A DNA stretch of 64,000 bases from an uncultured Myxococcales bacterium. Lineage in GTDB: Bacteria > Myxococcota_A > UBA9042 > PWKZ01 > CAYRCM01. How positions within the stretch are numbered: the first letter of the stretch is position 1; each line of letters begins with the position of its first letter. Of this stretch, positions 20,654-34,448 are shown piece after piece. Position numbers and translations under genes: made by a program. The stretch spans positions 1,894 to 65,893 of the forward strand of contig CAYRCM010000008.1 of the NCBI GenBank assembly GCA_964422715.1, read 5' to 3'. Below the pieces are notes generated by a model. It had not been told where the DNA came from, did not search any database, and saw only the letters and a program-made list of their open reading frames with translations.

Positions 20654-21450
20654 GTTGCCAGGACGTACAGAAATTCGTCTACGTGTACCTCGACGGCGAA
20701 TTCGATGCCCGCGAACAGGCCGAATGGGACGCCCATCTGGCCCAGTGCCCGGCCTGCGCGCGGCTCGTCGCGGCCGAGCGCGCCTTCCGCACGCTGCTGC
20801 AGGCCTCGCTGCGCGAGCGCCCGGTGCGCGCCCCGGCCTCGCTCGTGCAGGCCGTGCGGGCGCGGCTCGACGAAGCCGCCGGCGGCGCGCGGCAGCGCAC
20901 ACGCCGGATCTTCGTGTGGGGGCCGGCGCTGGCCGCGGCGGCGGCGCTGACCGTGTTCGTGGCCGTGCGCGCCGCGGGTCCGCGCGCCCCAGACTTCGCC
21001 CCGCCCGAGCTCCGGGCCGACACCGTGGCCCCGCTCGTCGACGGCGCGGCCGAAGTGCATCATCGCGGGCTGCCGGCCGAGGTCGAAGGCCCCGAGACGG
21101 TGCTCGCCTCGAACCTCGGGGCCAAGGTGCCGTTCCGCCCCGTGCCGCCCCTGCCGGCCTCGACGGGCGCGCGGCTGCTCGGCGCCCGCGTGGTCCGGGT
21201 CGACGGCCAACCGGGCATCCAGTTCCTCTACGAGTACCACGGCCGGCGCGTGTCGGTGGTGCAATTGGCCCCCGCGCCGAGCGGGCCCGGCAGCCCGCAA
21301 CTCGCCGGCGCCCCCGTCACGCCGCGGCTCACCGAGTCGCGCGGCTACAACGTGGCGCTGTTCTCCGATCACGGCCTCACGAATTCGGTGGTGTCCGACA
21401 TCGACCAGACCGAACTGCTGCGCATCCTGCCCGCCACCTACCGCCGCTGA
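20650..21450 (+). CDS. Membrane-anchored anti-sigma factor with zinc-binding ZAS (zf-HC2) domain
   Basis: ATGA overlap with the sigma gene. MSCQDV..YLDGE...HLAQCPAC (HxxxCxxC), TM (WGPALAAAAALTVFVAV), then an extracytoplasmic domain. Confidence 0.88.
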   Translation: MSCQDVQKFVYVYLDGEFDAREQAEWDAHLAQCPACARLVAAERAFRTLLQASLRERPVRAPASLVQAVRARLDEAAGGARQRTRRIFVWGPALAAAAALTVFVAVRAAGPRAPDFAPPELRADTVAPLVDGAAEVHHRGLPAEVEGPETVLASNLGAKVPFRPVPPLPASTGARLLGARVVRVDGQPGIQFLYEYHGRRVSVVQLAPAPSGPGSPQLAGAPVTPRLTESRGYNVALFSDHGLTNSVVSDIDQTELLRILPATYRR

Positions 21451-21466
21451 ACGCGCGACCCTCCCA

Positions 21467-22996
21467 TCACGGCGCGGCGCCGATACGCGGCTCGACGACG
21501 AGCGGTGCCGTCGTGAGCGGCACTTCGGCAAAGCCGGCCACGACGTTGACGTCGCCCGTAACGCTCGGGATGCCGGCCCCGTCGGTGACGTAGCTCTCGT
21601 AGTGCGCTCGGCTGGCGTCGCCGACCGGCAGGAAGGCGCTGATGGGGGCCGTACCGGTCGTCCAGGCGACCACGCGGCGCAGGCCGCTGTGCCGGTCGCT
21701 GAACGCGTAGGCGCGCACTTCGGCCGGCAGTTCGGCCACGGGCCCGAGCCAGCGCGCGTGGCGCTCGTCGGTCGTCTGGACGAGCCGCTGCAGGGCGTAG
21801 AACGCCGCGCGCGGCGTGCCGAGCCGCGCGGGATCGGCCCCCGGGCCGGCCCCGTCGTCGATGAGCCCGACGCCGTTCATGGGGCTCTGCGGGTCGCCGC
21901 CGTAGTTGTACCAGTCGACGAGCCCGGCCCAGAGCACGCGGGTGGCCCCGGCGGCGCGGGCCCCGACAAGGCTGCGCACGAGCCAAGCGGCCTGGTCGGC
22001 CTCGGCCCGGACGGCGAGATCGGGACGCGGCTGGCCGGCGTAGGTGGACTGGACCAGCGAATAGAGCGCGGCGGACGAATAGCCATTGCGATCGAGCAGT
22101 TCACGAATGGCAGGGCCCTCGGGCAGGCCCTCGGCGGCGCCGGCGGCGCCGTAATCGGTGACGTGCACGTCGACGGCGTCGAAGGCCCCCTGGTCCTGCA
22201 ACGCGGCCACGACGGCGGACAGGTGGCTGCCCAGGTGGCCGAGCACGACGCGCCCCTGCGGGTCGGCGGCGCGGACAGCGCCCGCGAAAACCGCGACGAG
22301 CTCGGCATAGCGCTGCGGGCTCAACCGGTTCTGGGCGATGGCGTCGGCGGGGGCCTCCATGCACTGCCAGTAGCGCACGCGCACCTCGGGGGCGAGGTCG
22401 TCTTGGCCGTCGCCGTCGTAACGTTCGACCGCGGCGCGCGTGAACGCAGCAAAGCCCTCTTCGAAGCCGTCCGGAAAGACGGGACCCTCGGTGCCGTAGC
22501 GACTCGGGTCGACGATCAGGATGGCGTTGACGGTTTTCTCGGGCGCTGCGCGGAAGACGGCCTGGAGCGTCACGTCGGGGCCGGCGGCCTCGGCAAACGA
22601 TACGGCCGATGTCAGCGTGGGCTGCAGCCGCCCCCAGACGAGCAGGTTGCGCAGCGCCGTCCAGTGCACGTCGAGGGCCACGGCCTGGGTGTCGAGCCAG
22701 GCGCCGAAGGTCTCGTCGGTCAGGCCCAGCTGCTGGCGGAAGTAGGCGAATTCCTGCCCGTAGAGTTGGAACAGCCCGTAGCTCGCCTCTTCTTCGGGCA
22801 GGGGCGGCGGGGTCTCGGGCCCCGCATCGACCGTGTCCGGACCGGTGTCGGGCGGGCCGAGGTCGGGCGCCCCGAGGTCGGGGCCCGTGTCGGGCGCGGC
22901 GGCGTCGGGTGCGCCGGCAGCGCCGCCGCCGCACGCCGTGAGCGAGAGGAGAGCGACTGCGAGCACCGGGACCGCCGTTGCCATCGTCCAGCGCAT
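21467..22996 (-). CDS. Lipoprotein with glycoside-hydrolase clan A (GH39/GH5-like) fold, possibly inactive
   Basis: GGAGG RBS; lipobox LTA-C; PDxG linker; VERYDGDG..D, VRYWQ, VRAADPQGRVVLG, FDAVDVH, GLIDDG...TPRAAFYAL resemble GH39-like barrels. Confidence 0.65.
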   Translation of the reverse strand: MRWTMATAVPVLAVALLSLTACGGGAAGAPDAAAPDTGPDLGAPDLGPPDTGPDTVDAGPETPPPLPEEEASYGLFQLYGQEFAYFRQQLGLTDETFGAWLDTQAVALDVHWTALRNLLVWGRLQPTLTSAVSFAEAAGPDVTLQAVFRAAPEKTVNAILIVDPSRYGTEGPVFPDGFEEGFAAFTRAAVERYDGDGQDDLAPEVRVRYWQCMEAPADAIAQNRLSPQRYAELVAVFAGAVRAADPQGRVVLGHLGSHLSAVVAALQDQGAFDAVDVHVTDYGAAGAAEGLPEGPAIRELLDRNGYSSAALYSLVQSTYAGQPRPDLAVRAEADQAAWLVRSLVGARAAGATRVLWAGLVDWYNYGGDPQSPMNGVGLIDDGAGPGADPARLGTPRAAFYALQRLVQTTDERHARWLGPVAELPAEVRAYAFSDRHSGLRRVVAWTTGTAPISAFLPVGDASRAHYESYVTDGAGIPSVTGDVNVVAGFAEVPLTTAPLVVEPRIGAAP

Positions 22997-23062
22997 GGAA
23001 ACCTCCCTGGGGCACGAAAGGCGCGAGAAGCGTAGCAGCCGGTCGGCCGTCGTCGCAAGGGC

Positions 23063-24034
23063 TCAGGGGACGGCGGGAGGCGCGGCGGGGCCCTCGGCCC
23101 GGCGCGCACGCCAGACGAGCAGCGCGCCGGTCGCGAGCACGATGGGCAGCCCAATCAGCTGCGACGTCGAGAGGACATCGCCAAACCAGAGGCCGCGCGC
23201 GTCGTCGCGCCAGAACTCGACGACGAAGCGCAGCAGCGCGTAGGCCAGCAGCATGCCGAGGAAGAGTTGCCCCGCGGGCCGCGGGCGGCGGCGCAGGAAC
23301 AGCCACAGGCACAGTCCGAAGATGAGCGCCGCGCCGGCCGCCTCGTAGAGCTGCGCCGGGTGCACGGGCAACGAACCCGCGGCGTGCGGCGACAGCAGGC
23401 CGAGCTCGACGTGGTGCTTGAAGGCCGGGCTGTCGAGCGGAAAGCGCAAGGCCCACGGCAAGCGGGTGGGCGCGCCGAAGCAGCACCCGGACAGCACGCA
23501 GCCGATGCGGCCGAACGTGAGCCCCAGCGGCACGCCGACGGCACAGAGATCGGCGAGCGCCCAAAACGAGAAGCGCCGCCAGCGGGCGAGCAGCAGCACG
23601 GCCGGCAAGGCCAGGATGGGTCCGCCGTAGTACGCCAGCCCGCCCTGCCACAGTTTGAACACGCGCAAACAGTCGGCCGCCGGGTAGCACAGCCCCGAGG
23701 CGGCGTCGCAGCGCGCGCCGGCCTTGCCGATGATGCACTGCGCGGCTTCGCGGCACGGCAGCCCGTAGGAGAGCGCGCGGCCCGGCAGCCGCTCCGGCTC
23801 GGTGCACAGATGCACGTAGTCCCAGAAGCCGCCGTCGGCGAGCACGTGCAGCAGCCGGGCGCCCAGGACGCCGAAGACGATCAGGACGAGGGCGGCGTCG
23901 AGGAAGTGGCGCTGGTCGAAGCCCGTACGCCCGGCGAGCCACCAGCCGAGCAGCACGGCCGCCATGAGCCCGAGGGTCAGCAGCGTGAAGTAGGCCGGCA
24001 GCTGCACGATGCCGAGGTCGATGACCGGCGCCAT
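23063..24034 (-). CDS. lgt: Prolipoprotein diacylglyceryl transferase with a 6-Cys insertion
   Basis: GARLLHV, WQGGLAYYGG, GRIGC..SGCCFG, HPAQLYE, YALLRFVVEFWR, STSQLI. Confidence 0.92.
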   Translation of the reverse strand: MAPVIDLGIVQLPAYFTLLTLGLMAAVLLGWWLAGRTGFDQRHFLDAALVLIVFGVLGARLLHVLADGGFWDYVHLCTEPERLPGRALSYGLPCREAAQCIIGKAGARCDAASGLCYPAADCLRVFKLWQGGLAYYGGPILALPAVLLLARWRRFSFWALADLCAVGVPLGLTFGRIGCVLSGCCFGAPTRLPWALRFPLDSPAFKHHVELGLLSPHAAGSLPVHPAQLYEAAGAALIFGLCLWLFLRRRPRPAGQLFLGMLLAYALLRFVVEFWRDDARGLWFGDVLSTSQLIGLPIVLATGALLVWRARRAEGPAAPPAVP

Positions 24035-24035
24035 G

Positions 24036-25070
24036 CTAGGAGGCGCGCTCCACGGACTTGCGCGCGTTGAAGGGGCTGGACTTGACGAAGAGCATCTCGG
24101 CGAGCAGCGCCACGACCCCGAGCGTGATGGCGATGTCGGCGACGTTGTACGTCGGCCAGTGACGGGTCCCGATGTACATGTCGATGTAGTCGATGACCAC
24201 GTGATAGAGCAGCCGGTCGACGAGGTTGCCCATGGCGCCGCCCAGGATGGCGGCAAACGCGATCATCGCCGAGCGGTGCCCGGGTTTGAGGCGCGCGTAG
24301 ATGACGAGGATGACGACGGCCGCAAGCGCCGAGATGAGCGTGAGGATGATGTGGCGGATGGACTCGGGCGCCGTGTTGAGGAACCCCCAAGCCGCACCCG
24401 GGTTTTCGGCGTAGATGAAGCGCAGGAAGCCCGGGATGAGCGTGACCGTGCGGTGCTGCAGCACGAAGAGGTCACCCGGGCGCACCGGCGCGGCGAGGTC
24501 GACGCCGAGCGTGGGCGCGCGGAGCGGGTAGGTGTAGCGCGCGGCCACCTCGACGGCGTCGTCCGGGTCGAGGGCGGGCACCCGTTCGCTCAGGAATTGC
24601 GCGAGCGACTTGCCTTTGTAGTGTTCGAGGACCCGGCTGCGGCGTTCGGCGGCCGACCAGTCGGGCCGGAGGTAGCTGAGCCAACGGTCGACGACGAGCG
24701 GTGTTTCGCGGTGCACGACGCGCGGCGCCAACGTCAGGTCCCGGCGGTGAAACGTGACGTACGCGAAAGCGGAACCGGGGGCAAACGCATCGGCGAACGC
24801 CGGGGCGGCCGGGTCGAGCCCCGGCGGCTCGCGCAGTTGCAGCAGGTTGTCCTTGAGCGCCGCATCGGTCGCGTCGTCGCCCGTGAGCCCGAAGCGCGCG
24901 ATGACCACGTCGCGCAACGGCCGGCCGGCTTCTTCGGGGGTGACGACGAGCGGCTGCGGGTGCTCGGGATTGGCGAGCACGCGGTCGGCCCACACCTTGC
25001 TCAGGAGGTCGGCCGCGACCACCAAGGCCACGGCGGCCACGAGAAACCAGTAGCGGCCAAAGCGCTTCAT
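24036..25070 (-). CDS. lspA: Signal peptidase II with a ~175-aa insertion (344 aa)
   Basis: ATGA overlap with ileS stop; DLLSK in TM1, ENPGAAWG, GAMGNLVDR, VIDYI, YNVAD (both catalytic Asp present). Confidence 0.9.
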   Translation of the reverse strand: MKRFGRYWFLVAAVALVVAADLLSKVWADRVLANPEHPQPLVVTPEEAGRPLRDVVIARFGLTGDDATDAALKDNLLQLREPPGLDPAAPAFADAFAPGSAFAYVTFHRRDLTLAPRVVHRETPLVVDRWLSYLRPDWSAAERRSRVLEHYKGKSLAQFLSERVPALDPDDAVEVAARYTYPLRAPTLGVDLAAPVRPGDLFVLQHRTVTLIPGFLRFIYAENPGAAWGFLNTAPESIRHIILTLISALAAVVILVIYARLKPGHRSAMIAFAAILGGAMGNLVDRLLYHVVIDYIDMYIGTRHWPTYNVADIAITLGVVALLAEMLFVKSSPFNARKSVERAS

Positions 25071-28000
25071 GCGTCCTCCGCGGGCGGTGCCATTTTGGCG
25101 ATGTGCACGGCAATGGCCTCTTTCTGGATGTCGAGCACGGTGAATCCCTCGGCGGCCTCGACCGGCCGGGCCTCGACGGCCAGCAACTCGGCCTGCACGT
25201 AGTCGCGGTGTTCGGCGAGCGCGCCGAGCAGCGTGTCGGAGGCCGTGTGATAGGCGAGCCGGATGCGGTCTTCCACTTCGAGGCCCTGGTCCTTGCGCAG
25301 CATCTGCACGCGCCGCACGAAGTCGCGCACGAGCCCTTCGCGGCGGAGCTCGTTGGTGAGCGTCGTGCGCACGGCGACGCGGCTGCCTGCGTCTTCGGCA
25401 ATGGCGAGGTCGCCCTCGGCCTGCCACGCGATGGCGACGTCGTCCGGCAGAATCTCGACCGGCGTGCCGTCGACGGTGAGCGTCGCGAGCCCGTCTTTGG
25501 CGAGCCGGGCGCGCAGCGACTCCGGGTCGGCGGCCTTGATGGCCGCGGCAACCGCCTGAACGTTCTTTGCAAAACGCGGGCCAAGGCGTTTGAAGTCGGG
25601 CTTGACCGACCAGGTGACGGGCAGCGTTTCGCCGGGTTTCAGCACGGTGACGCGCTTGACGTTGAGTTCGTCCATGAGCAGCGTGGCGAAGCGCTCGGCG
25701 GCGCGGGCCTCGGCGGCGTCGGCCGGTTGCACGAGCAGTTCGGCGAGCGGCTGGCGCACGCGCAGCCCGGCCTGGTTGCGGGCCGCGAGCCCCGCCGAGG
25801 TGAGGCGGATGGCCACCGCCATGTCGTTCATGAGCGCCTCGTCGACGAGGCCGGCCTCGAACGTTGGGAAGTCGCAGTGGTGCACGCTCTCGGGGGCCGT
25901 GCGGTCGTGGGCGCGCACGAGGTTCTGGTAGATGGCCTCGGTCACGTGCGGCACCATGGGCGCCAGCACCTGGACGAGCCCGACCAGGCATTCGTAGAGC
26001 GTCTCGTACGCCTGCACGCTGTCCTGCGATTCGCGACCGCGCCAGAACCGGCGACGGCTGCGCCGCACGTACCAGTTGCTCAGGTCGTCGATGAAGCGTT
26101 CGGCGGCGCGCCCGACCGCCCGGCAGTCGTAGCCGCCGAAGCCCTCGTGGGCCGTGCGGATGAGCTGCTGCAAGTGGCTGAGCGCCCAACGGTCGATGTC
26201 GGGCCGGCTGCCGGCCGGGCTGCGCTCGGCGGCGGGCACGTAGCCGTCGACGCGCGCATAGTTGACGAAGAAGGCGTAGGTATTCCAGAGCGTGTTGATG
26301 ACCTTGCCGCGCACCTCACGGCCGGCCGCGTAGCCGAAGTTGAGGTTGGCCGTGGGGTCCTGGCCGCAATAGATCCAGCGCATGACGTCGGCGCCCATCT
26401 GTTCGACCGCGTCGTCGAACCAGATGGCGTTGCCGAGGCTCTTGTGCATCTCGCGGCCCTGCTCGTCGCGGACGAGCGCGTGGCCGAGCAGCGTGCGGAA
26501 CGGCGCGCGGCCCTCGATCATGGTGCTCATGGCAAGCAGGGCGTAGAACCAGTTGCGGAACTGCCCGGGGAAGCATTCGAGCACGAGATCGGCCGGAAAC
26601 CACTGCTCCCAGTACGCGCGGTCTTCGTGGTAGCCCATGGTCGAGTAGGGCACGATGCCGGCGTCGAGCCAGGGGTTGCCGACGTCTTCGACGCGCCGCA
26701 TGCGGCCGCCGCATTGGGGACAGGCGAGTTCGACGGCGTCGATCCAGGGGCGGTGCGGCGTGTGCCCGGCGAGCGCATCGAGCCCGGCGACGGCGCGGCT
26801 GTCGAGTTCGGCGCGGCTGCCGATGACGTCGAAATGGCCGCAGCCGGACGTACGGCACACCCAGATGGGCAGGGCCAGCCCCCAGTAGCGCTTCTTCGAG
26901 ATCATCCAGTCGCGCATGTTGCGCAGCCAGTCGAGTTCGAGTTCCTTGCCAAACGCCGGAATCCAGCGGATGTGCTCGACGACGTCCATGATTTCCTGTT
27001 TCCAGGGGGCCATGGCGATGAACCACTCGTCGACGAGCCGGAACAGCAGTTCGGAGCCGCAGCGCCAGCAGTGCGGGTAGCTGTGCGGGTAGCGCTCGAC
27101 GTGCACGAGCAGGGCCTTCTTTTCGAGCGCCGCGAGGATGCGGTCGGTGGTCTCGTGCGACTGCGCGTGCTGCGCCACGAGCCAGTCGAAGCCCGCCACG
27201 TAGTGGCCTTCCTCGTCGAGCGGGGCGATGGCGACGAGCCCGTGTTCGCGGCCGAGTTCGTAGTCCTCTTTGCCGCAGCCGGGGGCGATGTGCACGATGC
27301 CGGTGCCTTCGCTGTCGGACACGAGCGCCCAGGGGATGACGCGGTGGCAGGTGGTGCCCTGACGGTCTTTGAGCGTGGCGTCGTACGGCACGCCGCCCGG
27401 CGTCTGCTGGGCCGGCAGATCGTCGAACGGGCCGTCGTACGTCCAGCCCACGAGCTCAGAGCCGAGCACCGTCCCGAGCACTTCGAAGCCCCCGCGGCTT
27501 TTCAGGAATTCGGCGGGACTCTGGAGCGGCGGCACGCCTTCGACCCAGCCACCGCCGGCCACGCCGGCGCGGAAGTCGGCGTCTTTGCGCCGCAGTTCGA
27601 GGGTGCCGGCGGCCAGGTAGTAGACGTCGCCGCCGGCCCGCACGCGGGCGTACACGAGGTCGGGGTGGACGGCCGCGGCCACGTTGGACGTGAACGTCCA
27701 CGGCGTGGTGGTCCACACGAGCAGGAACTCGCGGTCCCGGCCGCGCAGCGGGAAGCGCAGGAAAACGGCCCGATGCGCGGTGAGCTTGTAGCCCTCGTGC
27801 ATCTCCATCTGGGAAAGCCCGACGCCGCAGCGCGCGCACCACGGCATGACGTCGGTGCCGCGGTAGACGAGCCCGCGCTCGTGGCATTTCTTCAGGAAAT
27901 TCCAGATGGCGTAGTTGTTGCCGGGCGACATCGTGTAGTACGAGTCGCTCCAGTCCATCCAGTAGCCAAGCCGCTCCGACTGCTTCGTCTGCACGGCCGA

Positions 28001-28381
28001 GAAGCGCCGCACGCGCTCCATGCACTTCTCGACGAAGGCGCCGATGCCGTAGGCGTCGATGTCGCGCTTGCTGCGGAAGCCGAGTTCCTTCTCGACTTCG
28101 ACTTCGACCCACAGGCCCTGGCAGTCGAAGCCGTTCTGGTAGCGCAACGCATGGCCGGTCATGGCCTGGTAGCGCTGGTAGACGTCCTTGAGCGTGCGGC
28201 CCCAGGCGTGGTGCACGCCCATGGGGTTGTTGGCCGTGATGGGGCCGTCGAGAAACGAGTAGCGCGGCCCGCCGGCGCGCAACGCCCGCAGTTTGTCGAA
28301 GGCCTTCGTTTCGGTCCAGAACGCCTGGATGTCGTGTTCCAGGTGAACGATGTCGAACCACGGATCGACCTTGTGGTACAT
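25067..28381 (-). CDS. ileS: Isoleucine--tRNA ligase, type 2, with non-canonical GVHH and EMHKS motifs
   Basis: DGPITANNPMGVHH, GFDCQGL, editing VWTTTPWT and GTGIVHIAP, HSYPHCWR, DWMISKKRYWG, DLSNWYVRRSR, type-2 C-terminal EGLVRDFVRRVQMLRK; precedes lspA. Confidence 0.95.
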   Translation of the reverse strand: MYHKVDPWFDIVHLEHDIQAFWTETKAFDKLRALRAGGPRYSFLDGPITANNPMGVHHAWGRTLKDVYQRYQAMTGHALRYQNGFDCQGLWVEVEVEKELGFRSKRDIDAYGIGAFVEKCMERVRRFSAVQTKQSERLGYWMDWSDSYYTMSPGNNYAIWNFLKKCHERGLVYRGTDVMPWCARCGVGLSQMEMHEGYKLTAHRAVFLRFPLRGRDREFLLVWTTTPWTFTSNVAAAVHPDLVYARVRAGGDVYYLAAGTLELRRKDADFRAGVAGGGWVEGVPPLQSPAEFLKSRGGFEVLGTVLGSELVGWTYDGPFDDLPAQQTPGGVPYDATLKDRQGTTCHRVIPWALVSDSEGTGIVHIAPGCGKEDYELGREHGLVAIAPLDEEGHYVAGFDWLVAQHAQSHETTDRILAALEKKALLVHVERYPHSYPHCWRCGSELLFRLVDEWFIAMAPWKQEIMDVVEHIRWIPAFGKELELDWLRNMRDWMISKKRYWGLALPIWVCRTSGCGHFDVIGSRAELDSRAVAGLDALAGHTPHRPWIDAVELACPQCGGRMRRVEDVGNPWLDAGIVPYSTMGYHEDRAYWEQWFPADLVLECFPGQFRNWFYALLAMSTMIEGRAPFRTLLGHALVRDEQGREMHKSLGNAIWFDDAVEQMGADVMRWIYCGQDPTANLNFGYAAGREVRGKVINTLWNTYAFFVNYARVDGYVPAAERSPAGSRPDIDRWALSHLQQLIRTAHEGFGGYDCRAVGRAAERFIDDLSNWYVRRSRRRFWRGRESQDSVQAYETLYECLVGLVQVLAPMVPHVTEAIYQNLVRAHDRTAPESVHHCDFPTFEAGLVDEALMNDMAVAIRLTSAGLAARNQAGLRVRQPLAELLVQPADAAEARAAERFATLLMDELNVKRVTVLKPGETLPVTWSVKPDFKRLGPRFAKNVQAVAAAIKAADPESLRARLAKDGLATLTVDGTPVEILPDDVAIAWQAEGDLAIAEDAGSRVAVRTTLTNELRREGLVRDFVRRVQMLRKDQGLEVEDRIRLAYHTASDTLLGALAEHRDYVQAELLAVEARPVEAAEGFTVLDIQKEAIAVHIAKMAPPAEDA

Positions 28382-28491
28382 CGGTGCCTCTCGCCATGGG
28401 TCGTGGGCGCCCGGCCCACCGCGCGGGCGACGCCAGCCCGCCGCGGTTGCCGCCCGCCCCCCGCGGGAACGGCGGCGCGGCGTGGGTGCCT

Positions 28492-28520
28492 CTTAAATGT
28501 CGAATGCCCGCGAATGTCAA
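28492..28520 (-). promoter_or_regulatory. Candidate sigma70 promoter of the ileS-lspA-lgt operon
   Basis: Minus-strand TTGACA (28520-28515) followed 17 nt later by AT-rich TTTAAG; weak -10. Confidence 0.4.
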
Positions 28521-28611
28521 GCCAAAGCGCCAGTTCCGGGCCCGGCTCCGGGGCCCGGCCGTTGGGCCCCGCGCGGGCGCCCCGCAAGGCCCATGCGAAG
28601 GGCTAACATCC

Positions 28612-28640
28612 TTGACTTGCGGGCGGTTCTCTGGTACCCG
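28612..28640 (+). promoter_or_regulatory. Candidate sigma70 promoter for the DUF4398-like/OmpA operon
   Basis: TTGACT-N17-TACCCG with extended TG; the -10 is poor. Confidence 0.3.
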
Positions 28641-28709
28641 AGTCTCGTTTTGCGCGAGGCGTAAGACGGGCCGGCGCCCCGCAAAGGGCACCCGGCAGGA
28701 GCGAATGCC

Positions 28710-29183
28710 ATGCGACCCATCAGCGCTGCGTTGACCCTGGCGCTTTCTCTCTTCGCCATCGGCTGCGGCGCCATCCGCACCTCCACGGCCATCGTCGCGG
28801 CCGACGCGGCCATCGACAAAGCACGGGTGGCCCGCGCCGCCGAATTCAACGAATCGCTCTATCTCTTCCACAAGGCGCAGCTCTACGCCTCGCAGTCGCG
28901 CTTCCGAAACGGGTTTTCCGACTACCAGGTGGCCGAACTCTACGGTCGCAATGGCGAAAAATTCGGCAACGAAGCCAAGCTCGAAGCCGACCGGCAAGTC
29001 CAGCGCAAGCAGGAACGCGACGCCCGCCACGAACGGCTGCGGCTCCTGCGGATGCAGTACCAGCCGCAGGGTGGGGCGCCGGCAACGCCGACCGCCCCAT
29101 CCGCCACGCTCGCGCCGCCCCCCGAGCCGCCGCCGGCCGCCCCGTACGGCGCGCCCCCGGTGGCTCCCGGTCGCTGGCGCTAG
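28710..29183 (+). CDS. Helical lipoprotein, DUF4398-like
   Basis: AGGAG RBS; lipobox AIG-C; Ala-rich helix (A..AA..A, YLFHKAQ..A); Pro-rich tail; upstream of an OmpA gene as is usual for DUF4398. Confidence 0.7.
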   Translation: MRPISAALTLALSLFAIGCGAIRTSTAIVAADAAIDKARVARAAEFNESLYLFHKAQLYASQSRFRNGFSDYQVAELYGRNGEKFGNEAKLEADRQVQRKQERDARHERLRLLRMQYQPQGGAPATPTAPSATLAPPPEPPPAAPYGAPPVAPGRWR

Positions 29184-29217
29184 GATCTGCAAGGCCCCGT
29201 TGTTCGAGGACACCATC

Positions 29218-30336
29218 ATGCGCACGCAGTCCGCACAGCAATCCGCAGCCGCCCGGGTGCCCGACCCGCGGCGGTCGCGCGTCCCCCTCGGTCTGCTCTC
29301 GGTCGGCCTGCTCGCCCTCGCGGCGTCGTGCGTGTCGGCCGGCACGGTGCAAAGCCGCAGCCAGGAGCTCGACACGTTGCTGCTGCGCATCCAGCAGCCG
29401 GCCGCGATCTGCGCCCCACGCGAGCTCGCCACGGCCGAGGCCTTCGTCGAATTCGCGCGCCACGAGAGTTCGGCCGGCCATACGCTCTACGCCAAGATGT
29501 ACCTCGACCGGGCCCACAAGGCCGCGCAAGAGGCGTTCGTCAAGTCCAACTTCGACTACTGCGAGCCCGACACCGACAACGACGAAATCCGCGACTCGCT
29601 CGACCGCTGCCCCAAAGAACAAGAAGACTTCGACCTCATCCAGGACGAAGACGGCTGCCCCGACTTCGACCGCGACAACGACGGCGTCATGGACGATGTC
29701 GACCGCTGCCCCGACATCCAGGAAGACCGCGACGGCTTCCAGGACGAAGACGGCTGCCCCGATCCCGACAACGACCAAGACGGCATTCCCGACGCCCGCG
29801 ACCAGTGTCCGAACGACCCCGAAGACCGCGACGGCTTCCAGGACGAAGACGGCTGTCCCGACGCCGACAACGACCAGGACGGCATCCTCGACACGGCCGA
29901 CGGCTGCCCGAACGAAGCCGAAGACAAGGACGGCGACCGCGACGACGACGGCTGCCCCGACGTCTACCAGAACGTCGTCATCGCCGACGACGAAATCAAG
30001 ATCATGCAGGAAGTGCTCTTCCAGCACGGGCGCTCGCGCATCCTGTCCGAATCGTTCGGGCTGCTCGAAGAAGTGGCCAAGGCCATGCGCGACAACCCGA
30101 CGTTCCGCGTCGAGATTCAAGGCCATACCTCGTCGGTCGGCAGCGACCGCTCCAACCTGGCGCTGTCGCGCAAGCGTGCCAAGGCCGTCTGGTCGCACAT
30201 GACGGGCATCAACCGCATTCCGAAGGCGCGGCTCTCGTGGCAAGGCTACGGCGAATCGCAACTCCTCTGCATCGAAGAGACCGAAGCCTGCCACGCCAAG
30301 AACCGCCGGGTGGTCTTCAAGATCCTCTCGCGGTAG
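29218..30336 (+). CDS. OmpA-family peptidoglycan-binding lipoprotein with TSP type-3 repeats
   Basis: Lipobox LAAS-C; four 33-aa DxDxDG/DGCP repeats; OmpA-C domain (VEIQGHT, NLALSRKRA, GYGESQ, NRRVVF). Confidence 0.9.
   Translation: MRTQSAQQSAAARVPDPRRSRVPLGLLSVGLLALAASCVSAGTVQSRSQELDTLLLRIQQPAAICAPRELATAEAFVEFARHESSAGHTLYAKMYLDRAHKAAQEAFVKSNFDYCEPDTDNDEIRDSLDRCPKEQEDFDLIQDEDGCPDFDRDNDGVMDDVDRCPDIQEDRDGFQDEDGCPDPDNDQDGIPDARDQCPNDPEDRDGFQDEDGCPDADNDQDGILDTADGCPNEAEDKDGDRDDDGCPDVYQNVVIADDEIKIMQEVLFQHGRSRILSESFGLLEEVAKAMRDNPTFRVEIQGHTSSVGSDRSNLALSRKRAKAVWSHMTGINRIPKARLSWQGYGESQLLCIEETEACHAKNRRVVFKILSR
29566..29961 (+). repeat. Four 99-bp coding TSP3 (Ca-binding) repeats
   Basis: PDxDxDxDG..D..DxCP...EDxDGxxDxDGC repeated four times. 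Confidence 0.85.
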
Positions 30337-30408: not shown

Positions 30409-31260
30409 ATGGCCTTCGCCCTCGTGCTGCTGCTGGCCGTCCTCCAGGGACTCACCGAGTTCCTGCCGGTGTCGAGCGACGGCCATCTGCGCCTCTTGCA
30501 GGCCGTGGCCGGCGTGTCTGCCCCCGCGACCGCCGTCGACGTGGCGCTGCACCTGGGCACGCTCGGCGCCGTCGTGTTCGTGTTGCGGCGCGAACTCGGT
30601 GACGTGCTGCGCGGGGCGCTCGGGCTCTGCGGCGCGCTGCTCCGCGGCGAACCGCGTGCGGCCTGGCGCCGACCCGAGGTGCGGCTTGGGGTGTACCTGT
30701 GCGTGGCGACGGTACCGACGGGCCTCGTCGGGCTGCTTCTCGGACAGATCGCCGCGGGCCCGCTCGGCGGCCCGCTCTGGGTGGCCGGCTGGCTCCTGCT
30801 GAACGGCGGCGTGCTCTGGCTGGCGGGGCCGCTCGGCCGGCGCGCGGCCGCGGCCGGGCCGCCGCGCGAACTCGCCGACCTCCGGCTCCGCGACGCGCTC
30901 GTCATCGGCGCCGTGCAGGGCACCGCCGTGCTGCGCGGGCTGTCGCGCTCCGGCGCCACCATCGTCGCCGGGCTGGCCCTCGGGCTCAGCCGCGATGCCG
31001 CGGCGCGCTTCTCGTTTCTGGCCTCGGTGCCGGCCATCCTGGCGGCGGCCACCTACGAGGGGCTCTTCGCCGCGCCCGAACCGGGCACGCCGGGGCTCGC
31101 GACCCTCGGGCTCGGCGTCGTGCTCGCCGCCGTGGTGGGTTTTGGCGCGCTGCGGCTGCTCCTGCGCATCGTCCGGACCGGTCGGATCGAACGCTTCGCC
31201 TACTACTGTTGGGCGCTTGCCGCCGTCGTGATGGTGGCAGCGCTCGCCGGCTGGATGTAG
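30409..31260 (+). CDS. uppP: Undecaprenyl-diphosphate phosphatase (BacA family)
   Basis: QGLTEFLPVSSDGHL, LHLGTL, GLSRSGATI, AARFSFLAS.P. Confidence 0.93.
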   Translation: MAFALVLLLAVLQGLTEFLPVSSDGHLRLLQAVAGVSAPATAVDVALHLGTLGAVVFVLRRELGDVLRGALGLCGALLRGEPRAAWRRPEVRLGVYLCVATVPTGLVGLLLGQIAAGPLGGPLWVAGWLLLNGGVLWLAGPLGRRAAAAGPPRELADLRLRDALVIGAVQGTAVLRGLSRSGATIVAGLALGLSRDAAARFSFLASVPAILAAATYEGLFAAPEPGTPGLATLGLGVVLAAVVGFGALRLLLRIVRTGRIERFAYYCWALAAVVMVAALAGWM

Positions 31261-31455: not shown

Positions 31456-34095
31456 CTACATGCAGGCGGTGCGGCAGGTGTCGCTCGGCAGGAAGCACCA
31501 GGCGTTCGGGTCGTCGGGGCAGGGCGCGTAGCAGGGCTCGGTGCCTTCGGTCAGCAGCGCGCAGCGCAGGCCCGGCGGGCAGTCGGCGTCGGCGCGGCAG
31601 CCTTCGTAGGCCGGGCTGCACTGGCCATAGCAGCGCTCGTAGCAGACGCCGTTTTCGCACGCGGTGACACAGGTCACTGCGTCGTCGGCCCAGGAGCAGA
31701 AGTAGCCGTCGCGGCAGGTGCTGTCGTCGGTGCAGGCGTCTTCGCCAACGAGCGGCACGCAGACCCCGACGCAGGCCGGCATGTCGCAGTTTTCGCCTTC
31801 GGGGCAATCCCAGCCGCACGTGTCGGGGTCGATCTCGCAAGCCTCACCCGACGCGCAGTCAGCGTCGGCGTAGCAGGGGGTGGGCGGCGGCGTGACGGCA
31901 GTGCAGGTGCCGGGGCAGTATTCGGGCACGCCGCCACCGTCGGGCGGCCAGTAGCCGCAGTTCGGGTCGGGCATGCACACTTCGCCGGCCGGGCAGTCGG
32001 CATCGGCGAAGCAGGCGTTCTCGATGGGCACGCAGTAGCCGCCGCACCAGCTGGGCTCGCTTGGGTCGCTGCCCGGGCACGACCAGGAATCGAACTGGCA
32101 ACGCTCGCCCGGCGCGCACTCGGCGTCGGAGTAGCAGACACCGGAGAGCGGCAGGCACACGCCGGGCTGCGGCAGGAAGTCGGGGTCGGGATTGTCACGC
32201 GGCAGGGCACAGTACTCGCCGGCGGGGCAGTCGGTGTCGCTCCAGCAACCCGGCTCGACCGGCACGCACCAGCCGCCGCACGGCATGGGGTCGCCTTCGG
32301 GGAGGGCCGGGTCGTAGCCCCAGCCGCAGTTCGGGTCGTACTGGCAGAGGGCGCCCGTGCCGCAGTCGGCGTCGGACCAGCATTCGTAGGCCATGGGCAC
32401 GCACACGCCGCCGCAGTAAGCCGGCATGCCGTCGGGGGCGTCGGGGTCGTATTCGGCGCCGCCGCAGTAACTGCCGTCGAACTGACACATCATGCCGGGC
32501 CCGCAATCGGCATCGGAGAAGCACTCGGCCGGACGCGCGACGCAGATCCCGGGGCAGTAGGCGCGGTCGGTCTCGGGCGCGTTCGGGTCGCCGTCGAAGC
32601 CGCCGCAGTAGCTCGTGTCGAACTGGCACATCATGCCGGCGGGGCAGTCGGTATCGGAGAAGCATTCGCGCTGCACGGCCACGCAGAACCCGCCGCAACC
32701 GATGCGCAGGCCCTCTTCGGGCGGTACGGCCGGGTCGTTGTAGCCGCAGTTCGGATCGAGCTGGCACACCATGCCGGCACCGCACTGGTCGTCGCTGTAG
32801 CATTCGTAGGCGATGGGCACGCAGATGCCGCCGCACGCGATATCGGCCTGCGGCGCGCCGGAAGCATCGTCACCCGCGGCCCACGTGCCGCAGTAGGTGG
32901 GGTCGATCTGGCAGTACATGCCGGCGCCGCAGTCGGCGTCGGACCAGCACTGCGGCGTGGTCGGGATGCACACGCCACCGCAGCGGGGCGGTGCGAAGGC
33001 CGCATCGCCCTCGCCCGCCGGAACGGGCTCGGCGCCACAGTTCGCCCAGTCGATGTTGCAGACGGACCCGGCGTTGCAGTCGGCGTCGGACCAGCATTCG
33101 ACCGGACGCACGACGCAGACACCGCCGCAGTAGGCCGGCATCCCGGCCGGGTCGCCCGGGGCGTAGTCGCCCCCCGCGCAGTAGTCGTTCGTGAACTGGC
33201 ACATCATGCCGGGGCCGCAGTCGGCGTCGGACCAACATTCGACCGGCGGCTCGTACGGCACGCACACGCCGCTGCAGGCCACGAACTTGTCGCCGTCCAT
33301 GCCCGGCTCGTTGGGCCATGCACCGCAGTTGGTCTCATCGATCTGGCAGATGGTGCCCGGGCGACAATCGGCGTCGGACCAGCATTCGACCGGCGGCTCA
33401 TAGGGTACGCACACGCCGCCGCAACGCGGCATGGCCTCGCCCGAGCCCTCGCCGGCCGGCGCGAAGTCGCCACAGCGGTCGCCCGAGAACTCGCACACCC
33501 TACCGGGGCCGCAGTCGGCGTCGGACCAGCACTCGACCGGCGGCTCGTAGGGCACGCACACGCCGCCGCAACGCGGCATGGCGTCGCCCGTGCCGTCTTC
33601 GGCCGGCATGTAGCCGCAGCGGTCGCCCGAAAACTCGCACACCATGCCGGGGCCGCAGTCGGCGTCGGACCAGCACGTTTGCGGGAACAGGCACTCGCCG
33701 TTGACGCACTGGCCGCCATCCGGACAGTCGCTGTCGGCGCGGCATTCGACCGGGTCGGCGACGCACTCGCCATAGCAGACGTTGCAGTCGGGACAGTCGG
33801 GAGGCACCTCGCAGGCGCCGTCGGACACGCTGCAGTGCTCGCCGGCGCCGCAGTCGGCGTTGGAGTAGCAGCCGTCGCCCGGCTCGCCGTCGATGCACAG
33901 GCACGCGCCGTTCTCACAGGCCCAACGGCCGTCGCAGGGCCCGGCCGCGGCGCAGTCGGCGTCGCTCACGCAGCCCGGGGCGTCTTCGTCGGGTGCCCCA
34001 CAGGTGGGCCCGGTGTTGCCGGCCACGAAAAGCAGCAGGGCCGCGATACCAAAGCCCTGCCAGAGCCAGCCGCCGATCGTTCGTTTCGTTTGCAT
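31456..34095 (-). CDS. Exported Cys-rich tandem-repeat protein (879 aa, ~19 C-x-SD-x-D-C units)
   Basis: GAGGAGG RBS before ATG 34095; N-terminal hydrophobic segment ending GPT-C (atypical lipobox); repeated CWSDADCGxGxxC...C...CGGVC. Confidence 0.85.
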   Translation of the reverse strand: MQTKRTIGGWLWQGFGIAALLLFVAGNTGPTCGAPDEDAPGCVSDADCAAAGPCDGRWACENGACLCIDGEPGDGCYSNADCGAGEHCSVSDGACEVPPDCPDCNVCYGECVADPVECRADSDCPDGGQCVNGECLFPQTCWSDADCGPGMVCEFSGDRCGYMPAEDGTGDAMPRCGGVCVPYEPPVECWSDADCGPGRVCEFSGDRCGDFAPAGEGSGEAMPRCGGVCVPYEPPVECWSDADCRPGTICQIDETNCGAWPNEPGMDGDKFVACSGVCVPYEPPVECWSDADCGPGMMCQFTNDYCAGGDYAPGDPAGMPAYCGGVCVVRPVECWSDADCNAGSVCNIDWANCGAEPVPAGEGDAAFAPPRCGGVCIPTTPQCWSDADCGAGMYCQIDPTYCGTWAAGDDASGAPQADIACGGICVPIAYECYSDDQCGAGMVCQLDPNCGYNDPAVPPEEGLRIGCGGFCVAVQRECFSDTDCPAGMMCQFDTSYCGGFDGDPNAPETDRAYCPGICVARPAECFSDADCGPGMMCQFDGSYCGGAEYDPDAPDGMPAYCGGVCVPMAYECWSDADCGTGALCQYDPNCGWGYDPALPEGDPMPCGGWCVPVEPGCWSDTDCPAGEYCALPRDNPDPDFLPQPGVCLPLSGVCYSDAECAPGERCQFDSWSCPGSDPSEPSWCGGYCVPIENACFADADCPAGEVCMPDPNCGYWPPDGGGVPEYCPGTCTAVTPPPTPCYADADCASGEACEIDPDTCGWDCPEGENCDMPACVGVCVPLVGEDACTDDSTCRDGYFCSWADDAVTCVTACENGVCYERCYGQCSPAYEGCRADADCPPGLRCALLTEGTEPCYAPCPDDPNAWCFLPSDTCRTACM
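31460..33972 (-). repeat. Coding tandem repeat, ~47-50-aa period; youngest copies have a 147-bp period
   Basis: CGACCGGCGGCTC recurs at 33240, 33387 and 33534; GCAGTCGGCGTCGGACCA recurs several times. Confidence 0.85.
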
Positions 34096-34223
34096 GGTCG
34101 TCCTCCTCGCGGCGCGCCCGCTTCCTGGCTCGGGTCCCCCCGGCTCGGCCGCCGTCGCCGAGCCCTGGTGCAAGCGGCAGGCCAACCGGCCGCGGGCCCA
34201 AAATCCGCGGCCGACCTGTTGCC

Positions 34224-34238
34224 GCAACGCGTGCGCCA
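34224..34238 (-). promoter_or_regulatory. Candidate sigma54 (-24/-12) promoter for the Cys-rich gene
   Basis: Minus strand TGGC-GCACGCG-TTGC matches TGGC-N7-TTGC. Confidence 0.5.
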
Positions 34239-34448
34239 CGCCGGCAGCATACCCGGATCTCGGCAGAATGTGCAAGACCTGCACATGCAACGGGTGCACG
34301 CCACCCGGCGAACCGGGCAGCCCGGGTCCACACGCCCCGAGGCCCGCTCCGGGGCGATCTGGCGCCACCGCATGGCGTGTGGTAGCGTGTCGAACGCCTT
34401 GTGCGGCAGGGCGCCGCGCGGGGCTCGATGACCGCAAGGACGATGACC

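Follow-up and report, generated by a model that had tools for sequence, protein, structure and literature searches.

The isoleucyl-tRNA synthetase (IleRS) gene of the analysed window, a stretch of 64,000 nucleotides from an uncultured Myxococcales bacterium, appears to be the single housekeeping ileS of this organism; we read its product as a fully functional member of a remodelled sub-lineage of type-2 IleRSs (IleRS2), co-transcribed with lspA and lgt, and assign this reading a probability of about 0.8; the predicted insensitivity to mupirocin is, taken by itself, less certain. The gene (25067..28381, minus strand) is a stop-free frame that is translated from 28381 down to 25067 into 1104 amino acids, with deviations in both class I signature motifs. 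The HIGH signature is represented by GVHH (residues 55–58; 28208..28219, minus strand; codons GGC GTG CAC CAC), in which positions 1 and 3 are swapped, and the KMSKS loop by EMHKS (residues 644–648; 26438..26452, minus strand; codons GAG ATG CAC AAG AGC). A preliminary description of this DNA had placed both motifs, and the translation and an alignment with the P. megaterium IleRS2 (PmIleRS2) agreed with it to the nucleotide.

The protein scored 701.3 bits with the NCBIfam ileS equivalog model TIGR00392, whose cut-off is 621.4 bits, and the joined frame scored 702.5 bits with the same model in a search of the organism's own genome. Its Pfam domains were tRNA-synt_1, Anticodon_1, and DUF5915 (residues 901–1096). 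When all PDB chains were compared with the protein by phmmer, PmIleRS2 came first (E 3.5e-197), followed by the T. thermophilus IleRS; the bit scores were 661 for PmIleRS2 and 611 for TtIleRS2, versus 293 for PmIleRS1 and 292 for S. aureus IleRS1. The alignment with PmIleRS2 (8c8w) spanned residues 15–1068, which, together with DUF5915, corresponds to the type-2 organisation of the C-terminus, in place of which the IleRS1 proteins of related genomes have a CxxC...CxxC finger. The synthetic (HUP) domain also grouped with IleRS2 rather than IleRS1, as judged by the PDB scores; in a whole-protein tree that comprised no IleRS1, the clade of the protein was sister to all conventional IleRS2. Thus, the earlier classification of the enzyme as type 2 was borne out by the domain content, the structural matches, and the phylogeny.

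The gene had also been taken for a housekeeping one, with the advice to look for a second ileS. Searches of the organism's own genome (a MAG of 417 contigs, 95% complete) with the protein and with TIGR00392 revealed a single IleRS above the cut-off, in line with a housekeeping role, although in so fragmented an assembly a second copy may, strictly speaking, lie in missing sequence. The other matches, open frames of 1097, 897, 715, and 585 amino acids, were all below the cut-off, and we take them to be other class I synthetases. Moreover, an IleRS of this type was the sole IleRS in five further genomes, including an 8.7-Mb chromosome-level MAG of Gemmataceae. This bears on the idea that the protein is not a working IleRS at all, but a paralogue that has degenerated or neofunctionalised and in which damage has reached both class I signatures, as might be thought from the departure of both signatures and several substrate-site motifs from consensus. 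A paralogue of this kind would hardly be the only IleRS in all six genomes examined, and the deviating residues are near-invariant across hundreds of species, which points to purifying selection. Additionally, the score with TIGR00392 is above the cut-off and the editing and anticodon domains are intact: the Thr-rich motif WTTTPWT (27695..27715, minus strand), which we take to be the CP1 editing-site motif of IleRS, reads without change, and the GTG-x-VH-x-AP...D editing block is present. We therefore regard the loss of IleRS function as very improbable; both CP1 editing and the type-2 anticodon-binding C-terminus would be preserved.

In the phmmer alignment, GVHH fell on the HVGH/GVHH of P. 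megaterium IleRS2 (the chain 8c8w has GVHH at the HIGH position and 8c9d has HVGH), and EMHKS fell on KMSKS. The G/AXHH class comprises IleRS2 enzymes whose HIGH signature starts with Gly or Ala and ends in two His residues, and by its motif the protein belongs to it. Its loop is not a canonical KMSKS: Lys1 is replaced with Glu and Ser3 with His, while Met2, Lys4, and Ser5 are kept. Among the nearest clusters at 90% identity, the members of which are 53–64% identical to the query, GVHH was found in 120/120 and EMHKS in 118/120. The preliminary description had named a sequencing error as one way in which its proposal could fail. As the conversion of GVHH to HVGH requires four nucleotide changes in two codons, and as both motifs recur in the relatives, sequencing error and chance match are excluded; the reading frame is intact as well, which makes an artefact of sequencing or assembly virtually impossible.

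The deviations extend over the other motifs of the catalytic core. Just before HIGH, the pan-IleRS motif PPTANGxP is replaced with PITANNPM (residues 47–54; 28220..28243, minus strand); the subclade to which the protein belongs is fixed for I48, N52, and M54, where at least 89% of other IleRS2 sequences have P, G, and P, respectively, and where three IleRS1 proteins of relatives have P48, G52, and either I54 or L54. Further along, GFDCQGLW (residues 84–91; 28109..28132, minus strand) stands for GWDxHGLP, with the Asp kept and the Trp, His, and Pro changed. Gln131 (27989..27991, minus strand) aligns with Trp130 of PmIleRS2, which lies in the alpha2 helix beside the fourth His of HIGH; this position is occupied by Trp in 90% of conventional IleRS2 and by Gln in 93% of the subclade. 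The Trp is a hallmark of IleRS2 in a descriptive sense rather than a formal criterion, and, judging by the alignment, its replacement with Gln shows the lineage to be atypical within IleRS2. Finally, ECFPGQFRNWF (residues 602–612; 26546..26578, minus strand) occupies the place of E(G/A)xDQTRGWF; the stretch from the conserved Glu to the conserved Gln has lost its acidic residue, and Asn stands for the Gly that precedes Trp. In class Ia synthetases the Asp of G-x-D-Q is a ligand of the ribose hydroxyls.

In total, the residue present in at least 85% of the subclade differed from that present in at least 85% of conventional IleRS2 in 22 columns, and these sites clustered in the catalytic motifs. 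They include I48, N52, and M54 (PPTANGxP), F85, Q88, and W91 (GWDxHGLP), Q131, K496 and A503, N569 and A574 (D-x-WFDSG), G606, F608, and N610 (DQTRGWF), and, in the loop, H646 besides E644. At 12 or more of the 22 sites the IleRS1 proteins of related genomes match conventional IleRS2, and the organism's own ValRS agrees with the conventional state at a few (G52, R496, D569, S574, D606, and S646), indicating that the state of the subclade is the derived one. In our reading, the Rossmann-fold core of this sub-lineage has been remodelled as a block comprising PITANN, GVHH, GFDCQGLW, FPGQ with its lost Asp, and EMHKS. In the loop, the unchanged residues Met2, Lys4, and Ser5 would serve the phosphate and transition-state role; the second Lys of KMSKS is usually the dominant one, and the retention of these three residues fits this.

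Both the swap of HIGH and its link with mupirocin hyper-resistance are already published and are not new here; the statement of the preliminary description that such motifs have been reported to confer hyper-resistance is confirmed by Brkic et al. 2023 (PMC10485003). In that work, G/AXHH stood in place of HXGH in 86 of the 163 IleRS2 sequences of the tree; it was absent from IleRS1 and was not tolerated there. The D. radiodurans IleRS2, which has ALHH, showed a mupirocin Ki of 6.6 mM, and the reversion of its motif lowered the Ki 823-fold, while the introduction of GVHH into the T. thermophilus and P. megaterium IleRS2 raised the Ki about 200-fold (PMC10485003); in the P. megaterium enzyme the swap also impaired kcat and Km, by a factor of up to about 10 (PMC10485003). 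In the crystal structure of the GVHH variant of PmIleRS2, the His of the third position sits in place of the catalytic first His (PMC10485003). By analogy with this structure, His57 (position 3 of the motif) would supply the transition-state contact of the usual first His. The residue at position 130, which contacts the fourth His, is a bulky Trp in type-2 enzymes, whereas IleRS1 has Gln (Supplementary Fig. 8, PMC10485003); the W130Q replacement in PmIleRS2 reduced kcat 18-fold and left the Ki unchanged (PMC10485003). A follow-up study of 2026 (PMC13752280) mapped the variant, there called "GIHH", over about 98,000 sequences; the natural GIHH enzymes assayed according to that paper are those of S. 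griseus and D. radiodurans only.

By analogy with the natural G/AXHH enzymes, we predict that mupirocin inhibits this IleRS very poorly, and we hold this to be somewhat more probable than its opposite. Motif swaps in either direction in the D. radiodurans, T. thermophilus, and P. megaterium IleRS2 shifted the Ki 200- to 800-fold as expected (PMC10485003). Moreover, the carboxylate of mupirocin adjoins the KMSKS loop (PMC10485003), and we infer that the negative charge of Glu644, at position 1 of this loop, could add to the insensitivity. Hyper-resistance is an extrapolation nevertheless, because the tested enzymes have core motifs that this lineage changed at about 20 further positions. It could be that the protein is a normal housekeeping IleRS2 that is not hyper-resistant: the approximately 20 core substitutions would reshape the pocket so that GVHH and mupirocin do not clash, and the enzyme would have an ordinary type-2 Ki or be sensitive. 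The core differs at the 22 conserved sites, including Gln131 and the Asp of G-x-D-Q, from PmIleRS2 by sequence and from the tested enzymes by class assignment, and with Gln for Trp at 131 and this Asp lost, the structural reasoning that applies to PmIleRS2 may not hold for this enzyme. In addition, the response to mupirocin proved more variable than expected in the case of MaIleRS-A (PMC13752280). Given the consistent effect of the swap in three different enzymes and the additional charge in the loop, we find it rather unlikely that the sensitivity is ordinary. The equation of GXHH with mupirocin hyper-resistance would at present seem to be extrapolated to roughly the whole clade of PITANN-type enzymes.

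The IleRS2 enzymes of D. radiodurans (ALHH) and S. griseus resemble the protein studied here in being type-2 and housekeeping, with HIGH positions 1 and 3 swapped; their measured Ki for mupirocin lies in the mM range (PMC10485003). Both presumably belong to the class that combines PPTANG with G/AXHH. Representatives of that class retain both DQTRGWF and Lys1 of the loop (31/31, with an exact KMSKS in 22), in contrast to the enzyme of the window, which differs by PITANN, FPGQ, EMHKS, GFDCQGLW, and Gln131 and falls in a sister clade. The engineered GVHH variant of P. megaterium IleRS2 (8C8W) has the identical tetrapeptide and gave the top match in the PDB, but its motif is artificial, and, unlike in our IleRS, KMSKS, Trp130, and the DQ motif are unaltered in it. 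MupA and MupB, plasmid-borne proteins of staphylococci, are type-2 homologues whose models (NF000257 and NF000258) match most of the length of the IleRS; the scores of 606.2 and 559.1 bits are far below the cut-offs of 1900 bits, which excludes the protein from both families. MupA and MupB are accessory second copies, whereas this ileS is the sole chromosomal gene.

The phylogeny called for in the preliminary description placed the protein in a deep clade. The tree was built with FastTree (LG+gamma) from 165 whole-protein sequences, namely representatives at 50% identity from an exhaustive HMMER search, named loci, and the IleRS of relatives, with no IleRS1 included and the organism's own ValRS as the root. 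The sequences with a PITANN-type flank and GxHH but without DQ formed one clade (66/67 tips, support 0.995), sister (support 1.0) to a group comprising all conventional IleRS2. The latter contains both HXGH and G/AXHH forms, as well as eukaryote-like sequences, with PPTANG, DQTRGWF, and the first Lys of the loop kept. In the representative set, loop position 1 was Lys in 71/71 conventional IleRS2 and mostly Glu, Pro, or Ala in the PITANN clade. The IleRS of the window belongs to a derived subclade of 44 tips (support 0.99), characterised by FPGQ and mostly EMHKS. The deepest branch of the PITANN clade retains KMSKS, and between it and the subclade there is a grade in which E-Q stands for D-Q and the loops are highly variable (PFSKS, MFSKT, RISKT, PMHKS, and others).

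The deepest-branching member, P0183, combines GVHH, an E-Q/RLWF form, and an intact KMSKS with a PP-type flank (PPGANNVP), and from these features it is a candidate natural intermediate from which the sequence of motif changes might be worked out. The clade offers intermediates for the question of how a class I synthetase tolerates the joint loss of the first His of HIGH, the first Lys of KMSKS, and the Asp of G-x-D-Q, and such a stepwise natural series, with KMSKS in the deepest branch and E-Q in the intermediates, would allow the order and coupling of these changes to be dissected.

EMHKS had been put forward as a second active-site deviation. The deviation is real, but it is not special to this gene. 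Archaeal IleRS proteins of HxGT type, e.g., that of a Thermoprotei MAG (P0262), have the same kind of loop, EMHKS or AMHKS, whereas they retain His at position 1 and Gly at position 3 of HIGH and the DQ motif, and they branch outside the PITANN clade. The loop variant is thus recurrent and not mechanistically tied to GVHH. In the literature searched we found no mention of EMHKS; the string MHKS is absent from the text and supplements of PMC10485003 that were searched, although Fig. 2b of that paper may show the loop variant, and KMSKS is unmentioned in the 2026 phylogeny paper PMC13752280. As 22 near-invariant positions of IleRS2 are changed, including the Asp of G-x-D-Q, Lys1 of KMSKS, and the Trp at the HIGH helix, one may go further and ask whether the PITANN-GVHH-FPGQ-xMHKS lineage is a biochemically distinct IleRS subtype, with altered ATP/adenylate binding and with responses to mupirocin and to further inhibitors that mimic Ile-AMP which would be unpredictable from the enzymes studied. 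We consider this possible rather than probable.

The distribution of the lineage is wide. Six peptide patterns taken from this IleRS, searched for in one genome per species, identified 352 encoding loci; the best 80 of them come from Myxococcota, Planctomycetota (Gemmatales and Phycisphaerae), Binatia, Chloroflexota, Armatimonadota, Eisenbacteria, and Acidobacteriota, from MAGs of Actinomycetota, and from further groups, nearly all with the same motif set. GVHH and EMHKS are fixed traits of a large, old, multi-phylum clade and are not peculiar to this gene. Taken alone, the gene matters little, being one more housekeeping IleRS2 with a published motif, from a myxobacterial MAG of soil or sediment type. 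Of broader interest is the existence of a large lineage, spread over many phyla, that pairs a swapped HIGH with coherent changes of the core and has no identifiable member among the enzymes tested in PMC10485003 and PMC13752280.

Within Myxococcota, this type of IleRS is highly patchy, and IleRS1, conventional IleRS2, and the remodelled type all occur. Only 1 of 30 relatives of the same class had it (53–65% identity). About half of them had a conventional IleRS2 (33–39% identity) with HYGH or HNGH and with KMSKR or KESKS, and the remaining ones, including the only relative of the same order, had an IleRS1 with PPYANG, EGSDQHRGWF, and the C-terminal Cys finger. In 200 genomes of the phylum that are at least 90% complete, approximately 14 (about 7%) carried this type, a conventional IleRS2 was present in approximately 91, and 95 were without a match at E 1e-100; two of the latter (G001 and G002) were checked and both had IleRS1. 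Such a pattern, with an IleRS1 in the only same-order relative, would fit a horizontally acquired resistance determinant that was selected by mupirocin or a similar inhibitor of IleRS and displaced an ancestral IleRS1. However, the GC content at third codon positions (GC3) of ileS (0.914) equals that of its neighbours (0.916 in lspA and 0.941 in lgt), suggesting that the gene is a long-standing resident, and as its nearest homologue is only 64% identical, any transfer must be old. Furthermore, many phyla share the fixed set of motifs, which hence predates the organism, and the split of HUP-1 and HUP-2 is argued to predate mupirocin (PMC13752280). Acquisition under selection by such an inhibitor is therefore quite unlikely in our estimate. 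For a resident housekeeping enzyme, the predicted mupirocin insensitivity would be a legacy of the lineage and not an adaptation of the organism.

Several observations on the sequences compared are worth recording. The IleRS1 of the only same-order relative (G001; L100:189-3077, minus strand; a frame of 963 amino acids) has HPGT at the HIGH position, with Thr in place of the fourth His, together with the Cys finger, EGSDQHRGWF, and KMSKS, although the conservation of HIGH in HUP-1 enzymes is described as nearly absolute. Two same-class relatives, G011 (L097) and G004 (L099), have a conventional IleRS2 that combines HNGH with KESKS, in which Met2 of the loop is replaced with Glu, and the KESKS loop was also present in two proteins of the representative set. 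This type of IleRS is also encoded by contigs labelled "uncultured Rickettsiales" or "uncultured Alcaligenaceae" (L015, L016, L018, L044, L088, L029, L041, L054, and L066); their proteins are 50–60% identical to the myxobacterial one and lie in a high-GC context, and the taxonomy of these bins looks doubtful.

The statement that ileS heads an operon with lspA and lgt agreed with the arrangement of the three genes. The lspA gene for signal peptidase II (24036..25070, minus strand; 344 amino acids; Pfam Peptidase_A8, E 4.6e-34) begins with an ATG that overlaps the stop codon of ileS (ATGA, 25067–25070), and the ATG of lgt, the gene for prolipoprotein diacylglyceryl transferase (23063..24034, minus strand; 323 amino acids; Pfam LGT, E 1.2e-53), lies 1 nucleotide past the stop codon of lspA (24034–24036). 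The overlap and the 1-nucleotide gap suggest translational coupling of ileS, lspA, and lgt. We also considered a conserved ileS-lspA synteny as a sign of displacement in situ, and rejected it: of 85 loci, only 8 had lspA after ileS, and the closest homologues were not among them. With its 344 residues, the LspA protein is about twice the usual size; Peptidase_A8 matches only residues 207–328 (profile positions 24–142), approximately 190 residues separate the N-terminal hydrophobic segment from the conserved core, and the similarity to LspA of other ileS-lspA loci is confined to the C-terminal part. No Rfam match indicating an RNA leader or riboswitch was found at E ≤ 0.1 in 22800–29100, and in the scan of 21000–29200 for consensus promoters no promoter-like site appeared and terminator-like sites were at the background level. 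Upstream of ileS lie a divergent gene for an OmpA-family protein with a thrombospondin type-3 repeat (28951–30336, plus strand), a gene for the undecaprenyl-pyrophosphate phosphatase BacA/UppP (30409–31260, plus strand), and a gene for a 993-residue protein with Dickkopf_N-like Cys-rich modules (31456–34437, minus strand); the neighbourhood of ileS is envelope-centred.
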